DNA from: a candidate division WWE3 bacterium
GTDB taxonomy: Bacteria > Patescibacteriota > WWE3 > JAPLWK01
DNA: 64,000 nucleotides
Reading direction: 5' to 3'
Assembly (NCBI GenBank): GCA_026396615.1
Contig: JAPLWK010000008.1
Span: 9,096-73,095 of the forward strand
Positions 43,636-60,289 of the stretch are shown one piece after another. Under the pieces are notes generated by a model. That model was not told the DNA's origin. It made no database searches and saw nothing but the letters and a program-made list of their open reading frames with translations. Each line of letters opens with the position of its first letter. The stretch's first letter is position 1. The position numbers and the translations under genes are program-made.

Positions 43636-43761
43636 CCCGCCTGCCCACCTTTAGCAGGGAATCCAGCCATCCCACTTGTCATTCCGGCCTTGAGCCGGAA
43701 TCCAGTAACAGATTAAACGATTGAATCGATTTACTGGATTCTGAATCAAGTTCAGAATGAC
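43620..43761. mobile_element. Composite MITE: two left-type hairpin repeats plus one right-type repeat
   Basis: GTCATTCCGGGCTTGACCCG[CCTGCCCACCTTTAGCAGGG]AATCCAG...GTCATTCCGGCCTTGAGCCGGAATCCAGTAA...TTTACTGGATTCTGAATCAAGTTCAGAATGAC. Confidence 0.8.
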
Positions 43762-43767
43762 GTGTTT

Positions 43768-44760
43768 TTAATAATCAATTCCCATAGCAAATTTAACTAA
43801 AGCCAAAGTTTCAGCGGCAACCCGTTCGGCTTTCTTCGTCCCACTCATTAATATTTCCTTGACCTCTTCTGGGTGGGCTTCAAAATAACTGCGACGTTCT
43901 CTGATCGGCGCAATAAATTCTTCCAGAACATTAAACAGACGCTCTTTAACAGCTACATCGCCCACCTTGCCCGCTTGATACTGCAACTTAAGATCGGCGA
44001 CTAAATTTTTGTCAGCGTCAAACACATCCAAATAAGTAAATACCATATTGCCCTCAAGGTGACCGGGATCAGTGGCGCGAATCCGAGTGGGATCGGTATA
44101 CATTGATTTGACCTTGTTACGAAGAGTTGCGGTTGACTCGGACAAATAGATGCAGTTTCCCAGTGATTTAGACATCTTTGACTTGCCATCAATGCCTGGT
44201 AAACGAGCCACATCGCCCACTAAAGCTTCCGGTTCATTTAAAACCGGTTTATAAATCTGATTAAATTTACGGACTATTTCCCTGGTTTGTTCAATATGCG
44301 GCAATTGGTCCGAACCGACGGGGACCAAAGAAGCGTTAACGGAAGTAATATCCGCGGCTTGAGATACCGGGTACATAAAAAATCCCAAGGGAACGGATTC
44401 TTCCATCCCTTTATCTTTAAGTTCCGTTTTAACAGTTGGATTATGCCCCAACTGATTAACGCTGACCAAATTAGCGTAAAAAACCGTCAGTTCGGCAATT
44501 TGCGGAATGAGTGACTGGATAAAAAATGTGGTTTTACTAGGATCGATGCCAATGGCCAAATGGTCCATCGTGACCTCAAGGATATTGGCGCGAATCTTTT
44601 CGGGATGCTCAAAGTTATCTGTTAAAGCCTGGACGTCAGCCACGATAATAAACTCTTCGTATTCGTCTTGCAGTTTTAAACGGTTAGCCAGTGACCCCAC
44701 GTAATGACCTAGATGTAAGTGGCCGGTAGGCCGATCACCGGTTAAAATTCTTTTCTTCAT
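43768..44760 (-). CDS. trpS: Tryptophan--tRNA ligase
   Basis: Class I HIGH (TGHLHLGH) and KMSKS motifs. Confidence 0.9.
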
Positions 44761-44778
44761 AAAGCTAGTATATAACAA

Positions 44779-44853
44779 TGGTGGCAAGAGTGGGATTTGA
44801 ACCCACGACCGACGGCTTATGAGTCCGTTGCTCTACCACTGAGCTATCTTGCC
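44779..44853 (-). tRNA. tRNA with anticodon CAU (elongator Met or Ile2; G1:C72, so not an initiator), CCA encoded
   Basis: Reverse complement GGCAAGATAGCTCAGTGGTAGAGCAACGGACTCATAAGCCGTCGGTCGTGGGTTCAAATCCCACTCTTGCCACCA. Confidence 0.85.
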
Positions 44854-44992
44854 ACGTGCCTCGTCATTATAACAAACAAAAAACTCGCATCAGCGAGTTG
44901 GTTGCGGATCCAGGTAACGCTCCTGGTTAAGCGGGATTATGAGCCCCGCGAGATGTCTTCACCTCCCACCCGCTCGCTCATTATAATTTAAA

Positions 44993-45352
44993 TCACTGAA
45001 ATATCAAGGCTACCCACTGCTTCCACACCGGCAAATCAACTTTCACCGTCGACTCTCCTAAGGCTGACCCAACAATCGCGAGCTCCTCCGGAATAATCAC
45101 TAGCTTTTCACCAGGCTTAATCATTTGCAAATTATCGCGGGCCTGTTTTTCGATATGCCAGGGAGTCTGAGCTTCCGCTAGATCTTTGGTCAAAGCTATC
45201 TTTTTGTCACGCAAATTCTGAACCTCTTTAACCAAATTCGTATACCTAGCTTCTTTGACCCGCAGATCTAACAGCGTCTTACCTATATTAACGAGAGCGA
45301 CAACGCCAATCACCACCACCGCCCCATTTCTTAATAAGATTAATTTAGACAT
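44993..45352 (-). CDS. Septum formation initiator (FtsB/DivIC-like)
   Basis: Single N-terminal transmembrane segment followed by a coiled-coil (LVKEVQNLRDKKIALTKDLAEAQ). Confidence 0.55.
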   Translation of the reverse strand: MSKLILLRNGAVVVIGVVALVNIGKTLLDLRVKEARYTNLVKEVQNLRDKKIALTKDLAEAQTPWHIEKQARDNLQMIKPGEKLVIIPEELAIVGSALGESTVKVDLPVWKQWVALIFQ

Positions 45353-45611
45353 AATAGTTAGTTAGTGTATAATAAACTAGTCGAGCTGATCCGGACCCTC
45401 GCCGTAAAAGCGGAGAGTGTGGCCGAATAATCTCGACACTTTTATTTTATATACAACCCAAAAGATCTACTACCTCTCTTTCTGTAATTTTACGAACAGT
45501 TGCATGCTTATGATAACGATGTAGCTGCCACTTTGATCAACTTCAACGGTCACTTTGCTCATGACTACTCTATCATAGAGTATAATTGGAAAAAATAAAT
45601 TGGAGGAGAAG

Positions 45612-45848
45612 ATGGAAATTCCAGTCGGTTACGTGCTGGCGGAGGTTATAGGCGTAAAAGCAAATCAGGCCCGCTTTGTAGTTGTTCCCGATCAATTGGG
45701 AAAATACGAAAAGCCTGGAGTATGGTTTCATGGTCAAAGACCTTCAACAACGCCTAAAGAAGCTCTAGCCAGGTTTCTTAATCATCCGAAAGTCGAAACC
45801 CAAAAATGCCTAAATGCTTTTAAAAAAGACTGGTGTGGTGCTAAGTAA
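45612..45848 (+). CDS. Small hypothetical protein (78 aa)
   Basis: RBS GGAGGAG and the ATG at 45612; -10 TATAAT at about 45580; hairpin terminator GGGCCGACGGCC plus T-tract after the stop. Confidence 0.4.
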   Translation: MEIPVGYVLAEVIGVKANQARFVVVPDQLGKYEKPGVWFHGQRPSTTPKEALARFLNHPKVETQKCLNAFKKDWCGAK

Positions 45849-45896
45849 ATGCGAACTTTTGCTCGGGCCGACGGCCTTTTCTTTATGTCAACCCAC

Positions 45897-45925
45897 TTGA
45901 CAAATAACACTATAGGTGGTATACT
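45897..45925 (+). promoter_or_regulatory. Near-perfect sigma70 promoter P1 (TTGACA-17-TATACT)
   Basis: TTGACAAATAACACTATAGGTGGTATACT; shares the CACACTATAGGTG spacer core with P2 at 46427. Confidence 0.6.
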
Positions 45926-46013
45926 GGCTGTACAAATATTGCCGCCGCAAAGTACAAGACTATTCGAATCCCACGGTGGCAATAGTAAATTACTAATATA
46001 GGAGAACAAAATA

Positions 46014-46259
46014 ATGGTACGAAGCGAGATATCAGAAGAGGTCGTCGAAGTTACTGCAGTCGACGATACTAAGATGGTGGATTTTTGTGAGGGAATTTGG
46101 GAAACTGCTTTCCCTACTCCACCTGCAGAAGCCCAAACTCATAATATCGAGGAATTGGCCCAGCGTGTTCATGACGGATTTAACCCCGTTGATGCGGCTC
46201 TTGACATTGCGTTCCCGGCCACCGACACCCTTTACGACGACTCTGAACACCTGTTCTAA
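46014..46259 (+). CDS. Small acidic hypothetical protein (81 aa)
   Basis: RBS TAGGAGAA before the ATG. Confidence 0.4.
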   Translation: MVRSEISEEVVEVTAVDDTKMVDFCEGIWETAFPTPPAEAQTHNIEELAQRVHDGFNPVDAALDIAFPATDTLYDDSEHLF

Positions 46260-46363
46260 GAACGTAAAGGCGCAAGGCTCATAAAATCTATATAGAATTT
46301 TATGGGCCTCTAACTAAAGACTTTCGGACCGCGCTGGAAGGTTTTAGTTAGCAACCAAAACTA

Positions 46364-46394
46364 GTCATTCCGGGCTTGACCCGGAATCCAGTAA
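46364..46394. repeat. Solo hairpin repeat copy
   Basis: GTCATTCCGGGCTTGACCCGGAATCCAGTAA. Confidence 0.85.
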
Positions 46395-46426
46395 AAAATA
46401 AAACAGACGCAACCGGTTTCAACTAC

Positions 46427-46455
46427 TTGACAATCCACACTATAGGTGTTATAAT
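46427..46455 (+). promoter_or_regulatory. Perfect sigma70 promoter P2 (TTGACA-17-TATAAT) driving a leader of about 210 nt before 46672
   Basis: TTGACAATCCACACTATAGGTGTTATAAT. Confidence 0.6.
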
Positions 46456-46671
46456 GTTAGCATGAAAACTGAATAGCTTTCTCCGGTAGGGCCATTCTAT
46501 CGGTAAGTTGGAGAGAGACGAAATTTGTTTTCCTCTATCTGTCCCCTATTTGGGCGCAGGATGAGCAAAATAAATTACAAATCGCCAAAACTAGACTTTG
46601 GATAGCTTCGTCCAAGGAAATAAAACTAGTTACGGCAAATAGATGGGCCAACCGCCCGAAAGGAAATACAA

Positions 46672-47307
46672 ATGAGTACGCAAGAAAATTACGCAAAGAA
46701 GAACGCCCGCGTGTTGTCGGCTCTTCAATCAGGCCAACCATATTGGTTGCTGAAGGCAGAGCAGGAGTACTACTCCCTAGTGCAGGTCGGTCCAGACCGA
46801 TTGCCGATTCCGATTCTCAAGCAGTTACTTGGGAATGAGCACGGTGATCTGATTACGCTGATCGGCCGGGAACCGGAGCTGACTTTCGACCGCGACATGC
46901 GAGTCGCTAATCAGAATGGTTTGCTCCGAGAGATAGTAGGCATCATGCTGGCCAGTATCGAGGCAGACCCTAGTCACAAAGGTGAATGGGAAGTCACGTA
47001 TAATGGTCTCAAGGGCCGGATTACGACAGAGTTCAGCAATCGGCCGGAATATTCGAGCAACGGTGGGGAGTACTTCTTCTACCGCAAGTTCCGAATTACT
47101 GTCGCTGGCGTGACGTCATTCGATGACTGGTCCTGCGACTTCTCGGATTATCAAAATCCAGGGCAGTTGCTTTACCGCATCGACCTGACAAGTCTGCAGC
47201 CAATTTTCGATCACGCCGAATTGATTGCGAAAGCAGTCATCGCCGGCGAGTGGAATTCTGTTTGCTCAGTGTGCGGTCACGTCTACACCCACACTCAGGA
47301 GGCCTAA
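46672..47307 (+). CDS. Hypothetical protein (211 aa), first gene of a GC-rich two-gene module
   Basis: RBS AAAGGAAA; about 52% GC against about 43% in the flanks; C-terminal CSVCGH; translationally coupled to the next gene. Confidence 0.5.
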   Translation: MSTQENYAKKNARVLSALQSGQPYWLLKAEQEYYSLVQVGPDRLPIPILKQLLGNEHGDLITLIGREPELTFDRDMRVANQNGLLREIVGIMLASIEADPSHKGEWEVTYNGLKGRITTEFSNRPEYSSNGGEYFFYRKFRITVAGVTSFDDWSCDFSDYQNPGQLLYRIDLTSLQPIFDHAELIAKAVIAGEWNSVCSVCGHVYTHTQEA

Positions 47308-47309
47308 CG

Positions 47310-47632
47310 TGTCTACTATAATTCGCGTTGAGACACTGCTCGAGCCGGTCACCAAGAACGGTGTTGCTTATCAGGAACACGGTTGTCCTGAAAAGCCCGA
47401 AGGTTATGAAGATACTGACATCGTCGCCAAGGTTGGTGACTACGGTGATATCTACATGGCTATACCTATTGAGGTGATTCGGGAGTGGACAAAGTACTGG
47501 GAGGGCCAAGGTTACAAATTCGTCTTCCTTGGTTATTCCGGCGGTTTAGTCTGGTGGGGACAACTCAAGGATTTCGAGGAGTTACTAACCAGATTTAAGG
47601 TCGTCGGACAGTACGGTATTAATTTCTGCTAA
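47310..47632 (+). CDS. Hypothetical protein (107 aa), second gene of the GC-rich module
   Basis: GTG start 1 nt after the upstream stop, preceded by AGGAGG; high GC. Confidence 0.45.
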
Positions 47633-47785
47633 CACGAAGGCCTAAGGTAAGAATGGAATAAAATCCCTCTTCATACCTTAGGCCCGAACTTGAGAAGTTT
47701 AAGCAACTAGACTTTTGAAGTTTGGTTACAAACCTAACGCACGATTCCATGTACTGTCAAAATCTGTCAGTTCGGGTAATCGTGT

Positions 47786-48544
47786 TTAAAGTAACTTAAT
47801 TATTTTATTAACCAAATCCAATTCTACCTTCCGGTAATTTTCCGGCAGAAACTTGTCTAGATCCAAAAGAAGCGACTTTTCCGAAAAATTGGCCAGACGT
47901 TTTTGCAATTCTTCTTTAGAAATTGTTTCGTGGTAGTAGACTAACTTCCTTTCGACAAATTTCCAATCAATTGCTTCACCTCTTCCCAGTAAATACCACA
48001 AATCAAACAAATCCCGACCGCGACTACGATGCATAATAGCCCTAATTTTCTCAGCTACAATTTCCCTGGCACTCAAGTGTTTTATAATTGGAAGAGGTGA
48101 AACCGGCAAAGTTGTCGTGAGAACGCTGGTTTGCGGCTCTAAAGCGTTTTCCCGAGTTGAGAAATCTAATTTAAGAAAAAGTTGGGATGCCGAAAGTGGT
48201 AGATTAGAAAAAGTTAATCGAAAAGAAAAGTTTGGTTTTATAGTTTCTATTAATGCTAATTTTCCGGTGATATTTTCATCTACACAAAGCTTGCGAAGCG
48301 CCTCTGTAGCCAACTTCTGGATAACTTCTTGACTACCTCCGGTTGTAAAATCCAAATCTTCGGAGAATCTAAACGACCCAAAAACTAACTTGATGGCCGT
48401 CCCGCCTTTAAAAAAAGTGGTTTCACAATTCGGCTGCTCATAAAAATTCTTTAGGAAGACCACTTGAAGATACTCACGAAGTAGTGAATACTCGTCGATC
48501 TTTTTGGCCGCGGCCAATTGTTTTACTTCCAAGGCGGTAAGCAT
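47786..48544 (-). CDS. abiEii: AbiEii/DUF1814 nucleotidyltransferase toxin (type IV toxin-antitoxin / abortive infection)
   Basis: Family NTase motif FKGGTAIKLVFGSFRFSEDLDF. Confidence 0.75.
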   Translation of the reverse strand: MLTALEVKQLAAAKKIDEYSLLREYLQVVFLKNFYEQPNCETTFFKGGTAIKLVFGSFRFSEDLDFTTGGSQEVIQKLATEALRKLCVDENITGKLALIETIKPNFSFRLTFSNLPLSASQLFLKLDFSTRENALEPQTSVLTTTLPVSPLPIIKHLSAREIVAEKIRAIMHRSRGRDLFDLWYLLGRGEAIDWKFVERKLVYYHETISKEELQKRLANFSEKSLLLDLDKFLPENYRKVELDLVNKIIKLL

Positions 48545-49137
48545 AATTTCGGAAAGGCTTTGGCGTACTCACGGAGTTTAGCCAAATCAACGTGAGTTAG
48601 GTCAAGGTCTTTGTGATTAAGGTTGGTAAGGCCACGAGATTCAAAATACAGAGTATCCAAAAGAGCCTTCTCAGGCATGGCTATTAGAAACTCACCGGTT
48701 TTTTGGTAACCGAAGAAGAGTTTCTGTCCCAAATGAGAATATTTAATAATTTGGTTATCATAAGCAGTTTCGCGGCTTTTCTTGATAGTCGCCACTGTTA
48801 TAACTTGCGGATTTTGTGACAGTATTCCATAATAATTTAAAGCGGATTCGAAGGAAATGTAGCTGGGAGAAACTACAGCCGTTGCTACCGCGAATTTTTC
48901 AGGAGCTTTAAAACTGTTGGCGTAGAGGCCTTTGCGAATCGGCAGTAACCACCGATTCTTAACAAACCGATGTATTGCGGTGTTTTTAGAGTTAGCTGAC
49001 TTAAACCCTAAAGCGTTTTGCAAATCCTGACTCCCCAAAATGCTTTTAGTGGTACTTTGCAGAAATGAGATAAGTTGTTTGTTATAGATGGGTTCCATAT
49101 TATGTACAATAATGTACATTATCTGGGATCCTGTCAA
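48523..49137 (-). CDS. abiEi: AbiEi-family antitoxin/transcriptional regulator
   Basis: Lies upstream of AbiEii and overlaps it by 22 bp; size and winged-helix N-terminus fit AbiEi. Confidence 0.6.
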   Translation of the reverse strand: MTGSQIMYIIVHNMEPIYNKQLISFLQSTTKSILGSQDLQNALGFKSANSKNTAIHRFVKNRWLLPIRKGLYANSFKAPEKFAVATAVVSPSYISFESALNYYGILSQNPQVITVATIKKSRETAYDNQIIKYSHLGQKLFFGYQKTGEFLIAMPEKALLDTLYFESRGLTNLNHKDLDLTHVDLAKLREYAKAFPKLCLPPWK

Positions 49138-49224
49138 GCACTAAAAGGTTGCGCCGTGCTAAAATAGCTCCGGAGCCAGCATTTAATCGCGGGGTCAGAG
49201 CCGTCGTCTTCAGATTGAATTTTT

Positions 49225-49299
49225 GGGTGAGTAGCTTAATGGTAGAGCAGACGTCTTATACACGTCCGGTTCCAGGTTCGAATCCCGGCTCACCCACCA
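49225..49299 (+). tRNA. Candidate tRNA-Ile (anticodon UAU), CCA encoded
   Basis: GGGTGAGTAGCTTAATGGTAGAGCAGACGTCTTATACACGTCCGGTTCCAGGTTCGAATCCCGGCTCACCCACCA; perfect 5-bp anticodon stem GACGT/ACGTC, loop CTTATAC, A51:C63 mismatch in the T-stem. Confidence 0.7.
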
Positions 49300-49408
49300 A
49301 AATTCAATCGCTGCGAGCGCAGCGAGAAGTTACACGACTGGTCGGAGTTTTCAGTCCAGCTAAGTGCACCACTTAACAGTCACTAAAATAAATGTTAAAT
49401 TTAAGGTA

Positions 49409-51319
49409 ATGAAAAACGAAAATAAAAGAGATGACGAAGTCACCAGTATTACCCCGGAAACGATCAGGGAAGAACTCCCTAGTCATATCGAAGCCACGGT
49501 TAAGGCTGCTAAAGATCCTCAAGGTCAGGAAAAAGGCTTTGGTTTTGTAATAATTCCGGAAGGAAGTTTAACTGAGCATCCGGAAGTCTTAGGCGGCGCC
49601 AGAGTCGATGGGGCTACCCTAAGAAGTTGGGAAAGAAAGGGAGTGTTCGTCCATGCCTCGGCCATTTCGGGCCATTATCAACGGGAACCGCTTGAAGGTC
49701 TTGTAATTGTTCCCCAGAAAATTGGAATCAACCCTAGAAATGGAATGTATGCCGTTACTGAAGCTCAAACGGCTGAAGCATACAAAAGAGACGCTCAAGC
49801 CACCAGGATCCAAGCGCTCGCGGAACAACAGAAAAAGCAGGCTGAAGCCGCCAGAGAAAAGGCGGAGACCGAAAGGTCCCAGCAAATATTTGACCAACTA
49901 GTAGCAAAAGGACATCACTTAGATTCGGAATCACTTTGGGGAATCGCCAAAAGTTACGCTAGGTTTTATTACGCCAATGATGGTCGCTACCAGCAAGGAG
50001 ATTTACAGGAACAGTTAGCCCAAGCTGAAATCTCCGCGACCACAGCCGTCAAGAGGCAAAAATATGAAGAGGCTTTACCAGGAATCAGAGCCTGGGCTCA
50101 AGAGGAGGCCACTAAATGCGGCGGGGTGGTTGAAGAAGTTGACTGGCCTAAAGAAATTCGAATAGTGCTTAAAGAGGAACCCAAGGAGTATCAACAAGCC
50201 TCAGCGGCCTACGGGCGAGCCGCGGAAGTTGATAAATGGTTAGCCCAACAAAAATTGGTGCCGGTTCTCCCTAAGACCGATGACAACACTAACTACGCTG
50301 GCCGGTTTACCGGGGGTAGGGTGACTGTACACTCATGGTACAGCCCCGGAGATATGTACAGTAACCGCGGCGGCTCTTCTAGCGTTTCTTACGAAGTTGT
50401 CCCGCCTACCGATCAACCGGTAGCGGAAGTGGTAATTTGGAATCGACGTCTTGACGGAGTGACCGTCGATCGGTTAGCTGAATCTGCAGACCTTCGCGCT
50501 AATTTTCCACAAATTCTTAACAAATGGACGGAAGCCGCAGAGCTTGCCGAAGCCTACCAAAGGACTATCGAGTTAAAAGAAGCACAGGAGGCCGAAGCCA
50601 AGAAGCAAGCCGCTGAATATATAGAGTGGTTAACTAATAAAGTCTATCCGCCGATTGCCGATAAGGTGGATGTCACTCAAGAAAAAGAATGGCTCGGCCT
50701 GCCCGTGATTACGAAGTCTTGGTACGACCATTCAGATGTAACCATTAGATCAGTGCTGGTTAGATCCTGCGAGGTTGATATTCCCGGATTTGGCGCTTTG
50801 GATCTAATTCGCCATGGTTACTGGCCCGATGATGTCCGGCCTGCGGCGGCGTATCTTAAGGAGCAGTGGGATAGGCAGCAGCCGGAAGAGGCGGTGGTTG
50901 CAAACGAAACTAAAGACGAAGCTCTCACCAGATTAATAGGATTTGCTTTCAAGGAGGAGAATTTACCAACCATCCCTGGAATGGACTGGAAAATTAGCGG
51001 AGCTCTCCATCAAGCCCAAGCCTTTGCCGATGCTCAAAAAGAAACTTTAGCTCCGGCAATTCCAAAAGTTCCAGGAGAATGGGACCAAAAACACGAGCAG
51101 TACTATACTCACGATTTGGTGTTATCAGGTCGCGGATTACCGGATACAGTCATTTCCTCAATCTACTTTAGAGCCGGTCGACGTGGTAATGGGTACTTGG
51201 CCGAAGTCGAAGGCTCACCAAATTACCGAGTGGACGATTTATTTAAGGCGCATCCTGAGCTTGACCCCCGTCAAATCAGAGCCACCTGGAAAGTCGTGGA
51301 ACCACCCAAAACCTCTTGA
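49409..51319 (+). CDS. Large hypothetical protein (636 aa) with an N-terminal cold-shock (OB-fold) domain
   Basis: CSD-like KGFGFVIIPEG...GVFVHASAI, then an Ala/Gln/Glu-rich coiled-coil segment and a C-terminal region of unknown fold; about 50% GC. Confidence 0.5.
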   Translation: MKNENKRDDEVTSITPETIREELPSHIEATVKAAKDPQGQEKGFGFVIIPEGSLTEHPEVLGGARVDGATLRSWERKGVFVHASAISGHYQREPLEGLVIVPQKIGINPRNGMYAVTEAQTAEAYKRDAQATRIQALAEQQKKQAEAAREKAETERSQQIFDQLVAKGHHLDSESLWGIAKSYARFYYANDGRYQQGDLQEQLAQAEISATTAVKRQKYEEALPGIRAWAQEEATKCGGVVEEVDWPKEIRIVLKEEPKEYQQASAAYGRAAEVDKWLAQQKLVPVLPKTDDNTNYAGRFTGGRVTVHSWYSPGDMYSNRGGSSSVSYEVVPPTDQPVAEVVIWNRRLDGVTVDRLAESADLRANFPQILNKWTEAAELAEAYQRTIELKEAQEAEAKKQAAEYIEWLTNKVYPPIADKVDVTQEKEWLGLPVITKSWYDHSDVTIRSVLVRSCEVDIPGFGALDLIRHGYWPDDVRPAAAYLKEQWDRQQPEEAVVANETKDEALTRLIGFAFKEENLPTIPGMDWKISGALHQAQAFADAQKETLAPAIPKVPGEWDQKHEQYYTHDLVLSGRGLPDTVISSIYFRAGRRGNGYLAEVEGSPNYRVDDLFKAHPELDPRQIRATWKVVEPPKTS

Positions 51320-51443
51320 CAAACTCTTAGTCCTGTAGTATAATAATGAGTGATCAAGTCTCTTAACCACTGAAACGAGCGAACCCTAATATTCAACATC
51401 CTCTCAGCCCAACCTCATCAAAATGTTATATAATCACTAAGTT

Positions 51444-53282
51444 ATGCCAAATGGAAATCAAAATCCACAGTCAAACGTCAAAGCTCCCAAAAAGAAAAAC
51501 TTTTGGGACAATATTTTCTTTTATCTGTTAATAATTGCCATCGGTTGGGCGTTAATAAGTGCTTTCGGAAACAGTAGCAAAAGCGACGTCACTAAACCCT
51601 TTTCCAATGTTATTGGCCTTGCGCTCCAAGGGAAGGTTAGAGGCATCGAAGTGGCTGGCGACACAGTCACAGTGACCCTTAAGGACAGTTCCAAGTTTGA
51701 TGCCACTAAAGAAAGCAACGTTTCCGTTTTGGAAACCCTGCAGCGAAGCAACGTTGACCTAAATAATATTCCTGATGGCGTGACTACTAAAACAAACCTC
51801 CCCATCCTCGACCTTCTCCTAAATTTTGGCCCAATAATACTAATGGGCGCTCTACTCTTTTTCTTCTTCCGCCGAGCTCAGGGCGGGGCTTCCGACATTT
51901 TGTCGTTTGGTCGCAGCAAAGCTAAATTATTTATTAAAGATGCTAATAAAGAAGTTAAAGGCGTCACTTTTGGCGATGTGGCTGGCTCAACAGAAGCCAA
52001 ACGAGAACTTACCGAAGTAGTCGACTTTTTAAAATTCCCCGAAAAATATCGCAAACTGGGAGCCCGCATTCCTAAAGGGGTTCTATTAATTGGGCCACCC
52101 GGGGTTGGGAAGACAATGCTGGCCAAAGCTGTCGCCAACGAGGCCGGTGTCCCCTTCTTTAGCATGGCCGGCAGTGAATTTATGGAAATGCTCGTTGGCG
52201 TTGGCGCGAGTCGCGTTCGCGATTTGTTTGACACTGCCAAGAAGGCTCAGCCCAGTTTAATTTTCATTGACGAAGTGGAATCTATTGGTAAGCAGCGGGG
52301 TGGCGGGATGATGGGCGGTCATGATGAACGAGAGCAGACCCTTAATCAGATTTTGGTGGAAATGGATGGCTTTGACACCCGCACGAACGTGATCGTGATT
52401 GCGGCGACGAACCGACCGGATATGCTTGATAGTGCCCTGCTGAGACCCGGAAGGTTTGACCGAACAGTAACACTGGAGTTACCAGACTTAAAAGAGCGCG
52501 AGGAAATTATTAAAATTCACATGCGCGGTAAACCTTTTACAGGCAATGTTTCCGTGGAACACGTGGCCCAGCAAACCAGCGGTTTTAGCGGAGCAGATCT
52601 AGAAAATATGCTTAATGAAGCCGCCATTTTAGCCGCCCGCAATGATAAAAAAGAAATTGATGATCGTGATTTAACGGAAGCTTCCCTAAAAGTTAAATTA
52701 GGCCCCGAAAGGCGCCGCTTGCAAAGCGATGAGGATAAAAAAGTAATTGCTTACCATGAAGCCGGGCACGCTTTGGTGTCTTCCCAAATTCCGGGCTTGG
52801 ATCCGGTGACGAGAGTGTCGATTGTGGCCCGCGGCATGGCCCTGGGCTTTACTCAAAGTGCGCCTCTTTCTGATCGCCGTAACGAAAGCAAGACTCGACT
52901 CTTAGGAATGATTACCTCTGCTCTTGGTGGCAGAAGTGCCGAAGAATTAGTCTTTGGTGAAGTAACGACTGGAGCGTCTAACGATATTGAAGTGGCCACA
53001 GCGTTAGCGCGAAGAATGGTTACCGAGTTTGGAATGAGCGAACTCGGGCCTGTCTCTTTTGATAATTCAAATGAGAAGATGCTCTTCCCATTTGGTGATT
53101 CTGCGATGTCGGAAGAAACTAAAAGTAAAGTCGACAAAGCTGTTAAAAAAATCGTCGACGATGCCCACGAAAGAGCTTTAGAATTATTAACCACACATCG
53201 CGAAAAGCTCGACAAAATCGTGGCCGGTTTAGTAGAAAAAGAGACTTTGGAAGCAGAAGACTTTAAAGTGTTGATTGGATAA
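51444..53282 (+). CDS. ftsH: ATP-dependent zinc metalloprotease FtsH
   Basis: Walker [12 protein letters not shown] region, zinc site HEAGHA. Confidence 0.9.
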
Positions 53283-53425: not shown

Positions 53426-54358
53426 ATGTCTACCTTACTAATCTTAGATACATTTAATTTCCTACACCGCGCCTTTCACGCCATTCCCGCGACTTTAACT
53501 AATAGTGACGGTGAACCGATTAATGCCGTTTACGGAGTGGCCTCGATGCTCCTTACTATCATTGCGGATCAGCAGCCCACATATTTAGTGGCCGCCATGG
53601 AAAGCAAAGAAAAAGAAATTATTCGGGCTAGTCAATTTGTGGGTTATAAAGCCACTAGGCCAGAAATGGACTCGGGGCTGCGAAACCAAATCCCTAAAGT
53701 CGAGCGTCTTTTTTCCGCCATTGGTATCCCCCAACTTAAAGTGGAAGGTTATGAAGCCGACGACGTCATCGGCACTTTAGCCACCCAAATGATTAAAGTA
53801 GATCCCACCTTACAAGTTTTAGTGGTTAGTAATGATCAAGATATGATGCAGCTCATCAATCCTCGCGTCAAAGTTCTCTCACCCACTTTAGGCTCGGCCA
53901 AAAAGCCAGAGCTCTACGACGAAGCAACCATGATTGCTAAATACGGTTTTAAGCCGCGGCAGATGATTGACTATAAATCCCTGCGCGGCGATCCGTCAGA
54001 CAATATTCCCGGCGTTTTTGGCATTGGCGAAAAAACGGCTAAAGAATTAATCGAACAATTTGGAAATTTAGATGCGATTTATAATAATTTAGGAAAAGTG
54101 ACGAAGGAAAGTGTTCGCACGAAGTTGGCCGAAAATGCCGAAATGGCCGTGCAAAGTAAAATGCTAGCCACCATTAATTGTGATTTACCACTGTCAGAAA
54201 AGCTAGCCGATTTAAAACTCCCTAGTGATTGGAAAATAAAGGCAATAGATGTACTAAAAGAATTTCACTTTAAATCTCTCGTCGCCCGCCTCGAAGGTCC
54301 CGTGACAGCATCAAAAACCAAAGTCGACCCCGACTCTCCGCAACTAGGTTTACTGTAA
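53426..54358 (+). CDS. 5'-3' exonuclease (stand-alone Pol I N-terminal FEN-like nuclease)
   Basis: LILDTFNFLHRAFHA start, H3TH region GIPGVFGIGEKTA. Confidence 0.75.
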   Translation: MSTLLILDTFNFLHRAFHAIPATLTNSDGEPINAVYGVASMLLTIIADQQPTYLVAAMESKEKEIIRASQFVGYKATRPEMDSGLRNQIPKVERLFSAIGIPQLKVEGYEADDVIGTLATQMIKVDPTLQVLVVSNDQDMMQLINPRVKVLSPTLGSAKKPELYDEATMIAKYGFKPRQMIDYKSLRGDPSDNIPGVFGIGEKTAKELIEQFGNLDAIYNNLGKVTKESVRTKLAENAEMAVQSKMLATINCDLPLSEKLADLKLPSDWKIKAIDVLKEFHFKSLVARLEGPVTASKTKVDPDSPQLGLL

Positions 54359-54411
54359 AAACAAAAAAACCGACACCCTGTTGTTTAAAAACAAAGTGTC
54401 GGCCGGAGAAG

Positions 54412-54756
54412 CTACACTCGAAGTGCTTCAACCAAGAGATTGATTATCTCGTGAAGCTGCGCCTCCAAGAAAACGTGAACAGCAAAGACATCAGCCCGTA
54501 GGAGGTTGTCGTTGTTCTTCACAGCACAGTTAATCAGAACCGCCCATCTCCCACCAACCGTTCTCATCGGACTCACCTGATGAAAAACCGGCCCGAGTAC
54601 TTTATGAAACCAAGTGTCAGTTGGGTAACCGGTGACCGGAATCTTGGGCTCAAAAAGCATCGTCACTTCTACGAAGCCGTTAATATTACCAACAACTCCC
54701 ACAAACGTCAGGTCGCCCATAGCATCATGTAGTATGGGGTTACGATCTTTATCCAT
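54412..54756 (-). CDS. Hypothetical protein (114 aa)
   Basis: ORF only. Confidence 0.3.
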   Translation of the reverse strand: MDKDRNPILHDAMGDLTFVGVVGNINGFVEVTMLFEPKIPVTGYPTDTWFHKVLGPVFHQVSPMRTVGGRWAVLINCAVKNNDNLLRADVFAVHVFLEAQLHEIINLLVEALRV

Positions 54757-54909
54757 ATTTAAATCTCCTTATCTAATTGCGAGTCTTTATAAACAGGGCG
54801 ATGGTAGCATGCGCAAGCGTTTACAGCAACCATCCTTAATGCTAAGATTCAAGGCGGAAAGATACATTAAGCTCGTTGACAACTACTGTGAATTATCTAA
54901 AATGAAGTA

Positions 54910-55221
54910 ATGCCGAAAGAAACACGAAAGTATTCCGATCGCCCCGAGTACATGACGATGGCCGTAACGCGCCGGCGTCGGAGGCTTAAAGAGATGGCAG
55001 TAGGTTTAAAAGGCGGCTGTTGTCATTTTTGTGGATATAATAAATACATCGGAGCTTTAGACCTTCATCATATTAATGAAAGTGAAAAGAGTTTCGGTCT
55101 TTCATCTCGAGGCCTAACTCGTGGTTGGGAAAAGGTGAAATTAGAACTTACTAAGTGTGTTCTGGTTTGCGCTAATTGTCATAGAGAAATTCATGGTGGT
55201 TTATTAAAAATTGAATATTAA
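54910..55221 (+). CDS. HNH endonuclease
   Basis: CHFCGYNKY...LDLHHINE...CANCHREIH (HNH Zn-finger). Confidence 0.75.
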   Translation: MPKETRKYSDRPEYMTMAVTRRRRRLKEMAVGLKGGCCHFCGYNKYIGALDLHHINESEKSFGLSSRGLTRGWEKVKLELTKCVLVCANCHREIHGGLLKIEY

Positions 55222-55225
55222 ATGT

Positions 55226-55300
55226 TCCTCCCTGGCGCAATGGTAGCGCGGCGCCCTGTTAAGGCGATGGTTGGTGGTTCGAATCCACCGGGAGGAGCCA
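55226..55300 (+). tRNA. tRNA-Asn (anticodon GUU), CCA encoded
   Basis: TCCTCCCTGGCGCAATGGTAGCGCGGCGCCCTGTTAAGGCGATGGTTGGTGGTTCGAATCCACCGGGAGGAGCCA. Confidence 0.85.
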
Positions 55301-55695
55301 AAGTTTACGAGAGGCGTAAAAAGCAATCTTATCAAAGGGTTTTACCCAGTCGTAGCTTACTTTCTTGCCCGTAAGCGTTAAGTTCTGAAGTGCCATTTTC
55401 AAAAGCAGTCGTTTTTCTAGCGGTTCAGAACTTTCAAAGATTTTGCTGGCGTTAGAAGCCAGTTTTAGCAAGTAATCAGAGGTAATATAGTACTCTTCGT
55501 CAGCGACCCGCAGCTTGCCCATTTTGGTCTCAATACCCTTCTGTTTTTCCCTAAACTCTTTTCTCTTTTTCTCATAGTAGCTCTCAGTAATCCACCATCA
55601 CTACTATAAAGCCCTTTTGTGGACGGGCTAAACTTGTCGTGGTCCAGTATTGTAAACATTCCTGGTTTAAGTGTTAGCACAATAGTGTCTATCAT
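55259..55695 (-). pseudogene. Frameshifted gene remnant (two overlapping ORFs of 76 and 87 aa in different frames) next to tRNA-Asn
   Basis: ORFs 55465..55695 and 55259..55522 overlap in different frames; no recognisable domain. Confidence 0.4.
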
Positions 55696-55963
55696 TTTGG
55701 TTTTTCATTACTTCTTCGTAACGCTTTACAACTTCGTCCTCTGCAAATTCCGCAAAACCTTTGTTTAAGGGATAGAAAATGTTTAAGTTCCTCTCGGCCA
55801 CTTTTTTCGTTGGGTAAATTAGCCTGTACCCGCCACTTGGCCTGGTCATAATGCCGATTGAGCCAAGATAAAGGTTGTTGTCCAGCACAAAACTGGCAAA
55901 GGCTACCAGCCCGTTCTGCGGTTTTATGGGTATTATTTGGACCTCAGTTAGTCGGTTTTCCAT
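55667..55963 (-). CDS. spoVG: SpoVG-family protein
   Basis: MENRLTEVQIIPIKPQNGLVAFASFVLDNNLYLGSIGIMTRPSGGYRLIYP matches the SpoVG fold signature. Confidence 0.7.
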   Translation of the reverse strand: MENRLTEVQIIPIKPQNGLVAFASFVLDNNLYLGSIGIMTRPSGGYRLIYPTKKVAERNLNIFYPLNKGFAEFAEDEVVKRYEEVMKNQNDRHYCANT

Positions 55964-56172
55964 AGGTTTTCGTAACATTTACCCTGCGGTCAATTTCCAT
56001 TAGGACCGAGAAGAAGTCAGTTAAATGCCTCTTTTCTTCGGTCGTTAAAATTAACCTGTTGGGCTGTAGTTGCTGGTTATTTAATTCTGAAACGACCTTG
56101 CTTATTTCCATTAAGCAAAGTCTAGAAAATGGTGTGCTAGCTTTAAGTAGCTAGTAATTAGCTAAAAACTAG

Positions 56173-57552
56173 CTAGATGTACTTGGGGTTAATGTGGACT
56201 GTGTTCTGGGTATAATCCAAAAAGTCGTTTATGCCAGTTTTCTGTGCGATAGCTTTGGCCAAGCCGTCGCAAGCAGGGTAAAACTTTTTCCTACATTTTT
56301 GTAAAACAACCTCATCGTCAGTGCCTTCAATTTGCTGGACGACCTCATCCCAACTCCAATCTTTCTTCTTGTTTTGAGGGCTTTTCATCAATAAAGCAAT
56401 TAAATTGGTTCTAAACCTATCCTTTTGTAGCTTTAATTCTCGCTCTTGTATGTGCAGGGTGCTAGTTTTGTCGTTATAGCTGGAAGTGAGTGGCTTCTGA
56501 GCCTCAGATGGTTTTGTAACCGTTGGCAATACTGGCTCTATGGACCCTCGTTTTTGTTCAACTAATTTTGCTGTTTCCCAAGTATCCAAGAAATTATTTA
56601 CATCTACCTGAACTTCTGCATCAACCGAGTTTTTACTGTGGGAGTAATCTTTAATCACACCAATTTTCTGAAGATAATTTAGTGCTGTGAGGTACCAATC
56701 AGCCAACTCATCAATATCGTGACTGTCGTAGCCTTCAATCTCGTTTAGCGAGCGTATAAATGGTAAGTTGAGTGTGCTTGATTGGCTAAGTTGTAATTGG
56801 TCATCAATTTGAGCTAGAACCGAATAAATTTGACCGAAATTGGTTGCTGACAGGTTCTCAATCTTCCCTTTCTGCTTTATTTGATACCCTTCGTACCAGG
56901 TATCAAAGCCGTCAAGAACATCAATATAGAAGAGGCTGGGGTTAATTGGTTGTTCGCTGAGAGGTAAAAGCCTATTAGTTATCTGACGGACCTTAATAAT
57001 TTTCTCATCTTGCAGTTGTAGCAGGATGTTACGGATTTCCTCGTTGTCCAAGTAATTCAACCCACTATTTGCATTTGTGTGTAGTGTTGTTGGTTGGTCC
57101 TTGCGGGTGGCCTTTCTGGCCTCAATAATGGCTTTGACAATGCGTCCTAGCTTCTCTTCATAAGGCATTAGAGTGCTACTACCCAGCTTTTCAGGGCTAG
57201 TTACTGGTTTTTTGCCTGTAAATCTTTGATATTCTGGCTCTTGTTGGATTTTTAGAAAGTAGCGGTCAAAAGCGGGGAGAAGTTGAAGATGCCAGCAACC
57301 GTCGTCAGCGTGGTCATAAGGGTCAAACTCGTCAAGGTACGACTTTATCCTCGTGGGAACTTTTAGGACCTTTAAGACCTTCTCGTCTTTTTCTAATTTG
57401 GTTAACAATTGCGGTAGCTCAGTACCGCTATAATTTTGGTACAGGCCTTTAGAAGGGTCTAGCAGGGCTGGTTGGCCAGAAGGGGCAATAACCCTTGCGT
57501 CCTCAATTCTATTTAAGAGTAAATATAGCTTTTCTTTGCCGTTCATAATCAA
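56173..57552 (-). CDS. Hypothetical protein (459 aa)
   Basis: ORF only; no motif recognised. Confidence 0.4.
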   Translation of the reverse strand: MIMNGKEKLYLLLNRIEDARVIAPSGQPALLDPSKGLYQNYSGTELPQLLTKLEKDEKVLKVLKVPTRIKSYLDEFDPYDHADDGCWHLQLLPAFDRYFLKIQQEPEYQRFTGKKPVTSPEKLGSSTLMPYEEKLGRIVKAIIEARKATRKDQPTTLHTNANSGLNYLDNEEIRNILLQLQDEKIIKVRQITNRLLPLSEQPINPSLFYIDVLDGFDTWYEGYQIKQKGKIENLSATNFGQIYSVLAQIDDQLQLSQSSTLNLPFIRSLNEIEGYDSHDIDELADWYLTALNYLQKIGVIKDYSHSKNSVDAEVQVDVNNFLDTWETAKLVEQKRGSIEPVLPTVTKPSEAQKPLTSSYNDKTSTLHIQERELKLQKDRFRTNLIALLMKSPQNKKKDWSWDEVVQQIEGTDDEVVLQKCRKKFYPACDGLAKAIAQKTGINDFLDYTQNTVHINPKYI

Positions 57553-57651
57553 TCATTACTTTTTCAAGAATTACGCTGTTATTTACCTATTTTATCACTG
57601 CTTTACATTGGCCACTATATTTTGGTATCATTTGATAAGTGAAATGTCCTT

Positions 57652-58041
57652 TTGGGACTTAAGGGGGTGATATATGTGAAAAAACAAAGAGGTAAATTTT
57701 TAACCTTTATGCTGGTGTTAGCAGCTTTAGGCATTATTCAAACTCCTTATTACTTAATAAATACTAACGCCCTCCAATTGGCTTACGGCAATGTTCCTTC
57801 GTGGTATCCGATATATGCGGTACTAGGTCTGGGACTTGGCATCGGAATGATAATTGGAATGTGGCAACTAAAAAAATGGGCCGTGTACTTGCTAGTTGCA
57901 TCTACTACACTGACCTTCTTGTCACAGTTATTTATACTAAAGCCAGCTCAACAGTTTGCAGGTGTCACATATGCGATGACCATAGTATCGGCTGGTTTGT
58001 GGTTTTGGGCAATATCACGGAAGTGGGCTTCTTTTGATTAG
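57652..58041 (+). CDS. Hypothetical small membrane protein (four transmembrane segments)
   Basis: Hydrophobic helices. Confidence 0.4.
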   Translation: MGLKGVIYVKKQRGKFLTFMLVLAALGIIQTPYYLINTNALQLAYGNVPSWYPIYAVLGLGLGIGMIIGMWQLKKWAVYLLVASTTLTFLSQLFILKPAQQFAGVTYAMTIVSAGLWFWAISRKWASFD

Positions 58042-58205
58042 TTTCTAATGTATGCTCCCTCTACCAGTATGGCACGGAGCATATTTAGTTAACCGTCTCT
58101 TTACAAAGATTATTGATTTGCTAACATTCTAGTATGAGTGGAGCAGCAGCAGGAGCCGCTGCGGCAGCAGCTGCGGCCGCTAGGATGCGGCAAGAGGAAG
58201 AAGAA

Positions 58206-58541
58206 ATGACAACTTACACACCAGAAGACCTTAACAATGGTTGGGAGTTCAAGATACTGAGAGCCAATAGAATTGGCGGCTTTAAGGACCCGCTGGTTCT
58301 TAAAAAAGCTCTTGATGAAGAAGCACAAACAGGCTGGCAACTTGTAGAGAAGTTTGACGACTACCGCTTGCGGTTAAAAAGGAAGATAAGCGAACGCAGT
58401 AAGGACTCTCAGGCAACTAGTGACCCCTACAGAACAATCTACGGAATGTCTACCGCAGCTATGTTTTGGTTAGTTATGGGTGGTACATTGGGATTTACTG
58501 CCTTAATTATTTTGATAGCCTTTGCTGCCTCTGGTACATAA
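58206..58541 (+). CDS. DUF4177-like protein with a C-terminal transmembrane segment
   Basis: WEFKILRANRIGGF...GWQLVEKFDD pattern. The upstream GCN-repeat (poly-Ala) part of the track ORF is probably not translated. Confidence 0.45.
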   Translation: MTTYTPEDLNNGWEFKILRANRIGGFKDPLVLKKALDEEAQTGWQLVEKFDDYRLRLKRKISERSKDSQATSDPYRTIYGMSTAAMFWLVMGGTLGFTALIILIAFAASGT

Positions 58542-58800
58542 CCTAACCGTACTAACTATTTATCACATAAACCCTACATTAAATGTCTTACTTTCTTCAA
58601 ATCAGGCTAAGTGGTCAATAACGCCAGCGTATACAGTTTGGATATTTTGAAGCGTAAAACCGTACTCTAACTCTTGGTTGCAGAATAGGTATTTTAAGGG
58701 GAGCCACTAAACTCTAGTATTTCCTTGTTATTAAAGCCCAAACTCAATCCGTACATCTACTTGACAGATGTACAGTTAAACATGTATTATCCATACATCT

Positions 58801-59940: not shown

Positions 59941-60289
59941 CTTAATTCCCTTTTTTAGTTGGAATAAACACTTACATTTTTATAGTATAACTACTTCAGC
60001 ATACTCCTGAAGGTGTTGGAAGTAATAATTTACAACATAGTTTGCAAGGGCGAGCCATCATTCGATCAAAAATCACTCTTAAAACGTCGAGCTGGCTCAA
60101 AACGCCTCCCGAAGTTAGAAAGTTGGATGGCGCTATCTTTGCTGACCGTCTTTACGACCGGGTCTTTATCTTCCGTAACAGCGCCGATTCTTATAAATGT
60201 CTCATTTACATAGACCGAACACCTTCTTAAGATTTAAAAATGTGAGGTATATACTAAGGATCAAGAGGCTTTCGCGGATCCTTAAAGGT

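Follow-up and report, generated by a model that had tools for sequence, protein, structure and literature searches.

A diverged AbiE module and an orphan-family protein flank a conserved tRNA-Ile(UAU) gene in a candidate division WWE3 bacterium

Genes and features at the locus

In the genome of a candidate division WWE3 bacterium (Patescibacteriota; GenBank assembly GCA_026396615.1), the two genes of an AbiE toxin-antitoxin (TA) module, a tRNA gene, and the gene for a large protein of 636 amino acids (aa) lie next to one another. We analyzed this locus within a stretch of 64,000 nucleotides (nt) of contig JAPLWK010000008.1 (positions 9,096 to 73,095 of the forward strand), which we refer to as the window and whose numbering is used throughout. 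An initial annotation, made from the sequence alone, had described the locus as a tRNA-associated defense islet and possibly a decayed island, and all of the features that it listed were found where it had placed them. The toxin gene abiEii (47786 to 48544, − strand) encodes a DUF1814 nucleotidyltransferase (NTase) of 252 aa that is recognized by Pfam PF08843 and PADLOC. The antitoxin and transcriptional repressor gene abiEi (48523 to 49098, − strand; 191 aa) matches the PADLOC AbiEi model with E = 5.5e-31. The tRNA gene (49225 to 49299, + strand), on which ARAGORN and Rfam (67 bits) agree, encodes a tRNA-Ile with the anticodon TAT (UAU) and includes the CCA end. It is directly followed by a perfect 18-nt palindrome, TCGCTGCGAGCGCAGCGA (49308 to 49325). 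The 636-aa open reading frame (ORF; NT141_01855, + strand) runs from an ATG at 49409 to 51319 and encodes a member of an orphan family with a predicted cold-shock-like OB domain, long helices, and three alpha/beta domains. Its product is identical to the NCBI protein with that tag, from a metagenome-assembled genome in which the contig measures 213,525 bp, and the adjacent ORFs bear tags from NT141_01825 to NT141_01845.

These genes lie between two core genes. The left boundary is a gene for a DivIC/FtsB-like septum formation initiator (44993 to 45352, − strand; Pfam PF04977, E = 1.9e-12). The right boundary is ftsH (51444 to 53282, + strand; Pfam AAA and Peptidase_M41), whose product is 70% identical to its nearest relatives. 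A perfect sigma-70-type promoter for ftsH (51316 to 51344, + strand) overlaps the stop codon of the 636-aa ORF. The GC content of the 636-aa gene is 0.49, as the initial annotation had estimated (about 50%), while the AbiE genes are at 0.39 to 0.41, the 6.1-kb segment at 0.452, and the window at 0.444.

A conserved tRNA gene with accessory neighbors

We compared the locus with the contigs that carry the nearest FtsH homologs (L081 to L084; FtsH ~70% identical). No protein more than ~70% identical to the FtsH of this genome was found in a database of 5.8 billion clusters. The core backbone of the region has the order TrpRS, tRNA-Met, initiator-like tRNA, DivIC, tRNA-Ile(UAU), FtsH, and 5'-3' exonuclease. 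In L081, tRNA-Met, DivIC, tRNA-Ile(UAU), FtsH, and the exonuclease are contiguous, and L082 has the same order. The order is also the same in L083 and L084, where FolD alone stands between the tRNA and FtsH. DivIC orthologs thus sit beside tRNA-Ile(UAU) and FtsH in all four contigs, with spacers between DivIC, the tRNA, and FtsH of 30 to 200 bp or with FolD alone intervening. Using tblastx, we found TrpRS, tRNA-Met, DivIC, the tRNA, FtsH, and the exonuclease to be colinear between the window and the relatives. Nothing in L081 to L084 matched the window at 45.35 to 49.2 kb or at 49.3 to 51.4 kb, and no ORF of the islet was matched. Relative to these contigs, the genome carries an extra 3.9 kb upstream of the tRNA (45353 to 49224) and an extra 2.1 kb downstream of it (49300 to 51443).

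Judging from these contigs, the genes flanking the tRNA are accessory, because none of the four closest relatives found has them. The tRNA has a different history. Its orthologs share the anticodon arm, and differences in the acceptor stem are compensated. In a more distant contig (L181; FtsH 59% identical), tRNA-Ile(UAU) lies a few kilobases from DivIC. Because the tRNA occupies the same position in L081 to L084 and is also present in L181, sequence comparison identifies it as a vertically inherited, syntenic core gene and not an integration scar. The initial interpretation was borne out in part: the protein-coding genes are absent from the relatives, as expected of accessory DNA, but a decayed element integrated at the tRNA is not supported, the tRNA itself being conserved and syntenic.

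The conserved tRNA also bears on how this lineage decodes AUA. In 37 genes of the window, ATA accounts for 146 of the 874 isoleucine codons (17%), and because the codon is regularly used, a decoder for AUA is needed. A tRNA-Ile(UAU) is a known alternative to the TilS/lysidine system (PMC3575796). As in the AUA-decoding system of Mycoplasma mobile and a few other bacteria (PMC3575796), the window has a bacterial tRNA-Ile with a TAT anticodon that is conserved in its lineage, along with regular use of ATA. This suggests that AUA is decoded in this WWE3 lineage without lysidine, as in M. mobile (PMC3575796), or redundantly with lysidine. Neither tilS nor a gene for IleRS was noted among the window ORFs that were scanned, which were part of the ORFs in the 64 kb, and the literature searched contained no paper that links bacteria of the candidate phyla radiation (CPR) to tRNA-Ile(UAU) decoding. 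Together with an initiator-like tRNA with noncanonical D and T loops that is encoded nearby (see below), the lineage-conserved tRNA-Ile(UAU) bears on the organization of translation in reduced genomes.

As a separate observation, when L181 (5752 to 9890) is compared with the window (43768 to 53282), its block of DivIC, two tRNA(CAT) genes, and TrpRS has the opposite orientation with respect to FtsH, and TrpRS lies directly against FtsH. Rearrangement in the wider lineage has therefore also broken the DivIC/FtsH junction at which the islet is found here.

An accessory-gene hotspot or a decayed island

Taken together, we consider it reasonably likely that the locus represents a small hotspot of accessory genes, in which a self-contained AbiE module and an orphan protein unrelated to it have come to lie around a core tRNA. 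The two short spacers that flank the housekeeping tRNA-Ile(UAU) would constitute a permissive intergenic site that takes up accessory genes. The 5' spacer would have accumulated 3.9 kb, comprising four orphan ORFs and a complete AbiEi/AbiEii module, and the 3' spacer would have received the single 636-aa gene. AbiE, the tRNA, and the 636-aa protein would then adjoin one another by coincidence, and not as parts of a functional system or of an element integrated at the tRNA.

Some observations weigh against this reading. The relatives are distant (FtsH ~70%), so that the comparison documents absence in sister lineages and not a recent insertion. With relatives at such a distance, gain here and loss elsewhere are not separable, nor are timing and direction. 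Furthermore, the GC content of individual genes is heterogeneous, ranging from 0.39 for abiEii to 0.52 for an orphan ORF of 211 aa, which would fit a piecemeal foreign origin.

The same heterogeneity would also be compatible with a decayed genomic island, that is, an AbiE-carrying mobile element that integrated at tRNA-Ile(UAU) and later lost its integrase and attachment sites. We regard this as unlikely. In its favor, four relatives lack the genes that flank the tRNA here, and the 3' flank of the tRNA varies by lineage, being empty in L081 and L082, occupied by FolD in L083 and L084, and occupied by the 636-aa gene here. Mobile elements, moreover, often carry AbiE modules (PMC3985639). However, the traces that such an element might leave were not found. 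The 25-nt 3' end of the tRNA matched only itself across the 64-kb window (≤3 mismatches), so that the direct repeat that the initial annotation had proposed looking for was not there. No other bounding repeats were present in the window, where the only further resemblance was a generic T-arm similarity to tRNA-Asn. None of the ORFs between 45.3 and 51.4 kb matched an integrase, recombinase, transposase, or phage family in Pfam, PHROGs, or NCBIfam, which upholds the earlier remark that no integrase was seen. Nor does the composition of the segment deviate: its GC content is close to that of the window, and its tetranucleotide distance is 0.116 to 0.141, compared with a window median of 0.136.

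The layout also argues against an integrated element. Integrases that target tRNA genes normally leave the element on the 3' side of the tRNA gene. Here, the AbiE block sits on the opposite, 5' side, and it contains a copy of a repetitive extragenic palindromic (REP)-like element of the host genome along with host-type consensus promoters. The vertical conservation of the tRNA itself likewise speaks against a decayed tRNA-integrated element. The locus resembles tRNA-associated genomic islands in that accessory genes, including a defense module, adjoin a tRNA and are absent from relatives, but it differs from them in having genes on both sides of the tRNA and in lacking an integrase, an attachment repeat, and a compositional signal. 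For the islet ORFs that we looked up (the 81-aa and 211-aa orphan ORFs, AbiEii, AbiEi, and the 636-aa protein), clusters at 90% identity were confined to this genome. Overall, there is no evidence for tRNA-directed integration at this locus.

Elsewhere in the window, the most compositionally deviant part lies at 54000 to 60000, after a tRNA-Asn gene (55226 to 55300, + strand). Its tetranucleotide distance is 0.19 to 0.21 against the median of 0.136, with a GC content of ~0.40 and an AT skew of −0.15. It contains uncharacterized ORFs and a Fic gene (58801 to 59940), and an HNH-like ORF of 103 aa lies just before the tRNA-Asn. A tRNA-associated island is more plausible in this stretch than at the AbiE locus.

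The AbiE toxin-antitoxin pair

The initial annotation had proposed an AbiEii toxin with an overlapping AbiEi upstream, and family searches bore this out. AbiEii matched Pfam PF08843 with E = 4.3e-32 (112.4 bits; cutoff, 22.5) and 32 PADLOC AbiEii models (best, 1.4e-31). The abiEi gene lies upstream of abiEii with an overlap of 22 nt. The NTase motifs I and II (hG[G/S]...R...DhD), III (KLxAaxxR), and IV (+DxxD) were defined and shown by mutagenesis to be essential in the AbiEii of Streptococcus agalactiae (PMC3985639). All four are present in the window protein, as KGG at residues 46 to 48, R59/D63/D65, K166-IRAIMH-R173, and R177-DLF-D181; the motif FKGGTAIKLVFGSFRFSEDLDF corresponds to residues 45 to 66, and motif III has an isoleucine at the aromatic position. 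Matches to the Protein Data Bank (PDB) were weak and were to the DUF1814 structures 4ok0 and 6y56. AbiEi, in turn, fell under the curated cutoffs of its families: it matched NCBIfam TAA_AbiEi with E = 4.5e-12 (46 bits; cutoff, 150) and, weakly, Pfam AbiEi_4 with E = 0.033 (14.7 bits; cutoff, 25).

A promoter scan placed the abiE promoter, TTGACA-17-CATTAT, at 49099 to 49137 on the − strand (hexamers from 49137 to 49109). Because the alternative start codon TTG at 49137 is part of the −35 hexamer of this promoter, the true start of AbiEi is probably the ATG at 49098, which gives 191 aa and agrees with the NCBI annotation. Two palindromes (TGTACA each) coincide in part with the −10 hexamer and the start region. 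By analogy with the S. agalactiae system (PMC3985639), they are a candidate operator for AbiEi, although they have no sequence similarity to its IR1 and IR2 repeats.

We then examined 80 metagenomic loci that encode relatives of AbiEii. An AbiEi homolog was present in 64 of the 80, directly upstream of AbiEii in nearly all of those inspected. The AbiEii relatives were at most 43% identical to the window protein; the AbiEi homologs were at most 40% identical, with E = 2e-41 at best. Because an AbiEi homolog recurs in 64 of 80 AbiEii loci, the sequence evidence identifies the pair as a bona fide, diverged, and apparently intact defense/TA module. Like other AbiE systems, it is a bicistronic operon in which the antitoxin gene comes first and overlaps the toxin gene, its AbiEii retains the PF08843 match and motifs I to IV, its AbiEi matches the PADLOC and NCBIfam models, and its promoter palindromes are a possible operator. 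Unlike known AbiE systems, it is highly diverged, its AbiEi is under the curated Pfam and NCBIfam cutoffs, its host belongs to the CPR, and it is known here from sequence alone.

DUF1814 NTase toxins include the MenAT systems of Mycobacterium tuberculosis, and AbiE has been described as a type IV system and recently proposed as type VII. By homology, AbiEi would repress its own promoter and neutralize AbiEii. Once released, for example, during phage infection, AbiEii would nucleotidylate tRNA 3' ends and thereby stop translation; toxins of the DUF1814 family add nucleotides to the 3'-CCA ends of tRNAs (PMC7450476, PMC10435456, bioRxiv 10.64898/2026.01.19.700257). The defense content of CPR bacteria (Patescibacteria) is poorly charted, and the locus adds a diverged, apparently intact AbiE module from WWE3. 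The module itself is ordinary; the family of the 636-aa protein is the sole element of the locus with real potential for novelty.

Relationship among AbiE, the tRNA, and the large protein

The activity of DUF1814 toxins on tRNA acceptor ends (PMC7450476, PMC10435456, bioRxiv 10.64898/2026.01.19.700257), the plausible RNA-binding capacity of a cold-shock-like domain, and the physical contiguity of the three genes could together be read as one tRNA-centered, integrated system. AbiEii, tRNA-Ile(UAU), and the cold-shock-like protein would cooperate, for example, if the tRNA were a surplus or decoy substrate and the large protein sensed or protected tRNA or other RNA. Both the cooperation and these particular roles are highly improbable. 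The tRNA occupies the same place in relatives that have neither AbiE nor the large protein. The 636-aa family was found in none of the 80 related AbiE loci, and a tRNA stood beside AbiEi in only 2 of the 60 AbiE loci scanned (L123 and L178), the other 58 being without one. Conversely, AbiE was found in none of seven loci of the 636-aa family, and a tRNA in none of the three of these that were scanned for tRNAs. In the window, transcription of AbiE runs away from the tRNA and the 636-aa gene, each unit has a promoter of its own, and a hairpin follows the tRNA.

On the counts of 2 in 60 and 0 in 80, we rejected a functional link between AbiE and the tRNA. The trio of AbiE, tRNA, and cold-shock-like protein is not a recurring unit, and a functional link among its members is unsupported. 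Once relatives were compared, the position next to a tRNA turned out to indicate neither integration nor a functional link, even though the toxin family acts on tRNA 3' ends, which calls for caution in reading such loci.

Family and conserved core of the 636-aa protein

An exhaustive phmmer search of 1.84 billion representative sequences recovered eight distant homologs of the 636-aa protein (E = 2.5e-36 to 1e-7; 27 to 34% identity), all of which align to its C-terminal two-thirds. A 90% cluster yielded one more full-length member (P0130). The family amounts to 9 clusters among ~15 billion proteins. Word-indexed homology searches, whether with the single sequence or the family alignment, returned only the 636-aa protein itself. 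The nine members had no consistent family match in Pfam, and the 636-aa protein had no match in PHROGs, NCBIfam, or PDB sequences, nor in IMG/VR viral contigs, GenBank phages, or PLSDB plasmids.

Conservation within the family is highest in a C-terminal core, residues ~415 to 636 (50651 to 51316, + strand), which was delimited from alignments A1 and A3 and is matched by all eight homologs. It carries the motifs WLGxPV, QPExAVVxxET..EA..RL, NLPxIxGxxW, THxLxL, and DPR, with E500, L509, L519, P520, W527, H568, and D619 invariant. The N terminus varies; it is cold-shock-domain (CSD)-like in five members and different or absent in P0122, P0127, and P0128. Comparison of the predicted domains with one another using hhalign revealed no internal sequence repeats in the 636-aa protein.

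A predicted split cold-shock-like domain

The initial annotation had assigned an N-terminal cold-shock OB fold to the large protein on the basis of its motifs and had proposed predicting the structure. From the single sequence, the AlphaFold2 model was useless (pLDDT, 40). From the nine-sequence alignment, it reached a mean pLDDT of 82 and a pTM of 0.53. The latter model places a cold-shock-like OB fold at residues 29 to 121 (49493 to 49771, + strand), with strands at 29 to 35, 41 to 48, 79 to 82, 99 to 107, and 114 to 121 and a local pLDDT of ~75. A helical insertion of ~24 residues splits strands 2 and 3, where the model makes a lower-confidence excursion at residues 53 to 74. Long helices are predicted at 122 to 166, 199 to 237, 258 to 280, and 366 to 411, and beta-rich domains at ~240 to 347, 424 to 465, and 526 to 629. 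When the model was searched against the PDB with Foldseek, the sole high-probability match was CspC (8h1i_B; probability, 1.00; TM score, 0.64, target normalized; E = 0.023). Matches to BamC, PURA, and MHC-like folds had probabilities of 0.16 or less, and a structure search of BFVD returned nothing significant. Outside the split cold-shock-like domain, the model thus matched nothing in the PDB or BFVD, and the function of the protein would probably be new.

The sequence contains an RNP1-like motif (KGFGFV) and an RNP2-like motif (VFVHA, within VFVHASAI) in the right order. In the five members, an RNP1 of the type [KR]GFGF[VI] and an RNP2 of the type [VL]F[VIM]H are 24 to 40 residues apart, with the aromatic positions kept. 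The native sequence did not match the Pfam CSD family PF00313 even at E ≤ 10, because the insertion splits strands 2 and 3. After deletion of the 24-residue insert, PF00313 matched with E = 1.4e-6 (28.5 bits; cutoff, 27), over profile positions 10 to 39 only, which is the RNP1-RNP2 segment. The insert-deleted sequence also matched, more weakly, OB_RNB and the S1/CSD domain of TOTE conflict systems (E = 0.007). An hmmsearch against the PDB returned CspB at E ~1.

Thus, the proposed cold-shock OB fold held up in its motifs and its predicted fold, including the match to CspC, and failed in the native Pfam search. On the strength of the predicted model, the N-terminal domain is CSD-like but not a member of the CSD family, the deletion result being supporting evidence and not proof. 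The domain resembles CspA, CspB, and CspC in its predicted five-stranded barrel, the order of RNP1 and RNP2, and the match to 8h1i_B. It differs from them in its insertion of ~24 residues and in forming the N terminus of an acidic 636-aa multidomain protein, where they are stand-alone chaperones of 70 aa.

Judging from the model, the 636-aa protein would most likely bind single-stranded RNA or DNA through this split N-terminal domain. The long helices may serve in oligomerization or scaffolding, and the C-terminal core is possibly enzymatic. Three points count against this view of the protein. The protein is acidic, with a net charge of approximately −21, which is unusual for a nucleic-acid binder. 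The N-terminal profile of the family aligned to E. coli CspA with a probability of only 6% in hhalign. Finally, the cold-shock assignment depends on a model from nine sequences and on a Pfam match obtained after a deletion chosen by the analyst.

Genomic contexts of the family

We recovered seven loci of the 636-aa family, three of which were scanned for tRNAs. Some neighbors recur to a modest extent and hint at contexts of the conflict type, which counts against the hotspot reading. A PD-(D/E)XK nuclease (PDDEXK_1) is encoded on the same strand, 19 to 22 bp away, in two of the seven loci (L085 and L100); a Fic protein in two others (L086 and L098); and a shared uncharacterized protein of 115 to 141 aa in a further two (L088 and L099). 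The remaining neighbors are housekeeping genes, namely, GroES/EL, an AI-2E transporter with a 4-nt overlap, and FtsH.

These contexts raise the possibility, which we put forward only tentatively, that the 636-aa protein is a stand-alone conflict protein acting in defense or counterdefense. Such a role is compatible with the hotspot reading. The protein would combine a variable N-terminal nucleic-acid sensor, coiled coils, and a constant C-terminal effector core, and the locus would hold two independent defense genes. Several features fit: the N terminus varies on a constant C-terminal core, the invariant E500, H568, and D619 could be catalytic, the family is extremely patchy, and its neighbors include PD-(D/E)XK nucleases, Fic, and, here, AbiE. 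The weak match of the insert-deleted sequence to the S1/CSD domain of TOTE conflict systems points the same way, as does the architecture of CnuB, a defense protein of Type I CoCoNuT systems that consists of a CSD-like OB domain, a coiled coil, and a McrB GTPase (PMC10542128). The 636-aa protein resembles CnuB in having an N-terminal CSD-like OB domain followed by long helices and in having a defense module nearby. However, none of the nine members has a McrB/AAA GTPase, there is no CnuC/McrC partner and no nuclease, sequence similarity does not extend beyond the CSD-like motifs, and the neighbors in the window are a tRNA and FtsH.

Other observations speak against a conflict role. PADLOC returned only a chance-level match for the 636-aa protein (0.009, to a Type I specificity subunit), and no effector domain is recognizable. 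The adjacency to Fic may be due to chance, given that Fic is common, with two genes in the 64-kb window; the other contexts are housekeeping, and the sample is seven loci only. We place the same limited degree of belief in the broader proposal that the 636-aa protein founds an undescribed, CPR-restricted family of conflict or RNA-surveillance proteins that occupy variable sites near nucleases, Fic, and TA modules.

An association with Fic as such was considered and rejected. Fic is the only family-locus neighbor with a homolog in the window, and it was given little weight because Fic genes are frequent in such genomes. Separately, the 115- to 141-aa proteins found with two members, P0124 (L088, 3928 to 4275) and P0122 (L099, 2540 to 2965), are encoded downstream on the same strand, are 38% identical to one another (E = 6e-18), and have no Pfam match. 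This protein, which is absent from the 64-kb window, may be the partner of a subfamily.

Orphan ORFs, promoters, and hairpins of the 5' spacer

Next to DivIC, a promoter-like sequence (TAGACA-16-TATAAT) precedes a 58-nt hairpin with a U-run behind it (45346 to 45452, + strand; promoter scan and folding), a candidate short RNA or leader. The hairpin has a folding energy of −24.1 kcal/mol (z = −3.06), and none of 200 shuffled sequences was as stable. Four small orphan ORFs follow on the + strand, three of which are preceded by consensus-type sigma-70 promoters. The first (45612 to 45848) encodes 78 aa from its ATG, or 82 aa from a TTG at 45600, and has no match in Pfam, PHROGs, or NCBIfam. The second (46014 to 46259; NT141_01825, annotated as hypothetical) encodes 81 aa, forms a singleton cluster, and has no family match. 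The third (46672 to 47307; NT141_01830) encodes 211 aa at a GC content of 0.52; it has no family match and no relatives in scans of viral and metagenome contigs. The fourth (47309 to 47632) lies directly after it, encodes 107 aa, and is called as a gene in Logan contigs of the same genome. An overlapping 135-aa reading of this last ORF had no family match.

A 30-nt promoter cassette, TTGACAA-N4-CACTATAGGTGKTATAMTG, occurs in only two copies in the window, ahead of the 81-aa and 211-aa ORFs. The first copy (45897 to 45926, + strand) reads TTGACAA-N4-CACTATAGGTGGTATACTG. The second (46427 to 46456), a perfect TTGACA-17-TATAAT promoter, forms a unit with a structured 5' leader of 210 nt (46427 to 46671, + strand); the leader itself (46462 to 46671) folds with a z score of −3.1. 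At E ≤ 1, Rfam contained no match for the structured noncoding stretches of the islet, including the 58-nt hairpin and the 210-nt leader. Between the convergent 107-aa ORF and abiEii lies an inverted repeat with 15-nt arms that are 93% complementary (47639 to 47684), likely a bidirectional terminator.

A terminator-like, REP-like hairpin, GTCATTCCGGGCTTGACCCGGAATCCAGTAA, stands at 46364 to 46394 (+ strand). This 31-nt element has nine copies in the window (≤3 mismatches), all on the + strand, compared with 0 expected by chance. The copies start at 2611, 6725, 28487, 36845, 37969, 40778, 43678, 46364, and 53292. Those that were checked (43678, 46364, and 53292) are intergenic, with several at gene ends, and a divergent inverted relative lies at 43731 to 43767.

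Other observations in the window

To the left of DivIC, the window contains a 76-nt initiator-like, tRNA-like gene with a CAU anticodon (44899 to 44974, − strand). It has the hallmarks of an initiator, namely, a 1×72 mismatch, a G-rich anticodon stem, and a 3' end of ...GCAACCA. Its arms are noncanonical, with a 6-bp D stem, a 4-nt D loop without GG, and a T loop of AGCGTTA or GGCGGTA compared with TTCRAAT. ARAGORN recognizes it, as tRNA-Met, only in the window, and the Rfam tRNA model misses it even at E ≤ 1. The gene is more than 90% conserved in the four relatives (L081, 3956 to 4031; L082, 850 to 925; L083, 1995 to 2070; and L084, 99 to 174), and changes in its anticodon stem and T stem are compensatory. 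All four orthologs are on the + strand, opposite to the window copy, which is therefore inverted in this genome.

TrpRS (43768 to 44760, − strand) is closest to homologs from Deinococcus, Enterococcus/Lactobacillales, TM6/Babeliales, and Chlamydiae, at 56 to 61% identity among the best 80 matches in GTDB genomes (one per species). None of these 80 was a WWE3 genome. This suggests that the enzyme is of a horizontally exchanged type or that the lineage is poorly represented.

Finally, the rRNA genes of the window, which has the look of a CPR genome, are unlinked. The 16S rRNA gene is 2353 nt long and is interrupted by an ORF for a LAGLIDADG_2 homing endonuclease (26731 to 27474; Pfam, 9e-34); the region spans 25322 to 28387 on the − strand. 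Just downstream of the 16S rRNA gene are a LAGLIDADG_1 ORF (25322 to 25735) and an Rfam match to group II intron D1-D4 (25735 to 25822). The 23S rRNA gene is located at 1 to 608, 25 kb from the 16S rRNA gene.

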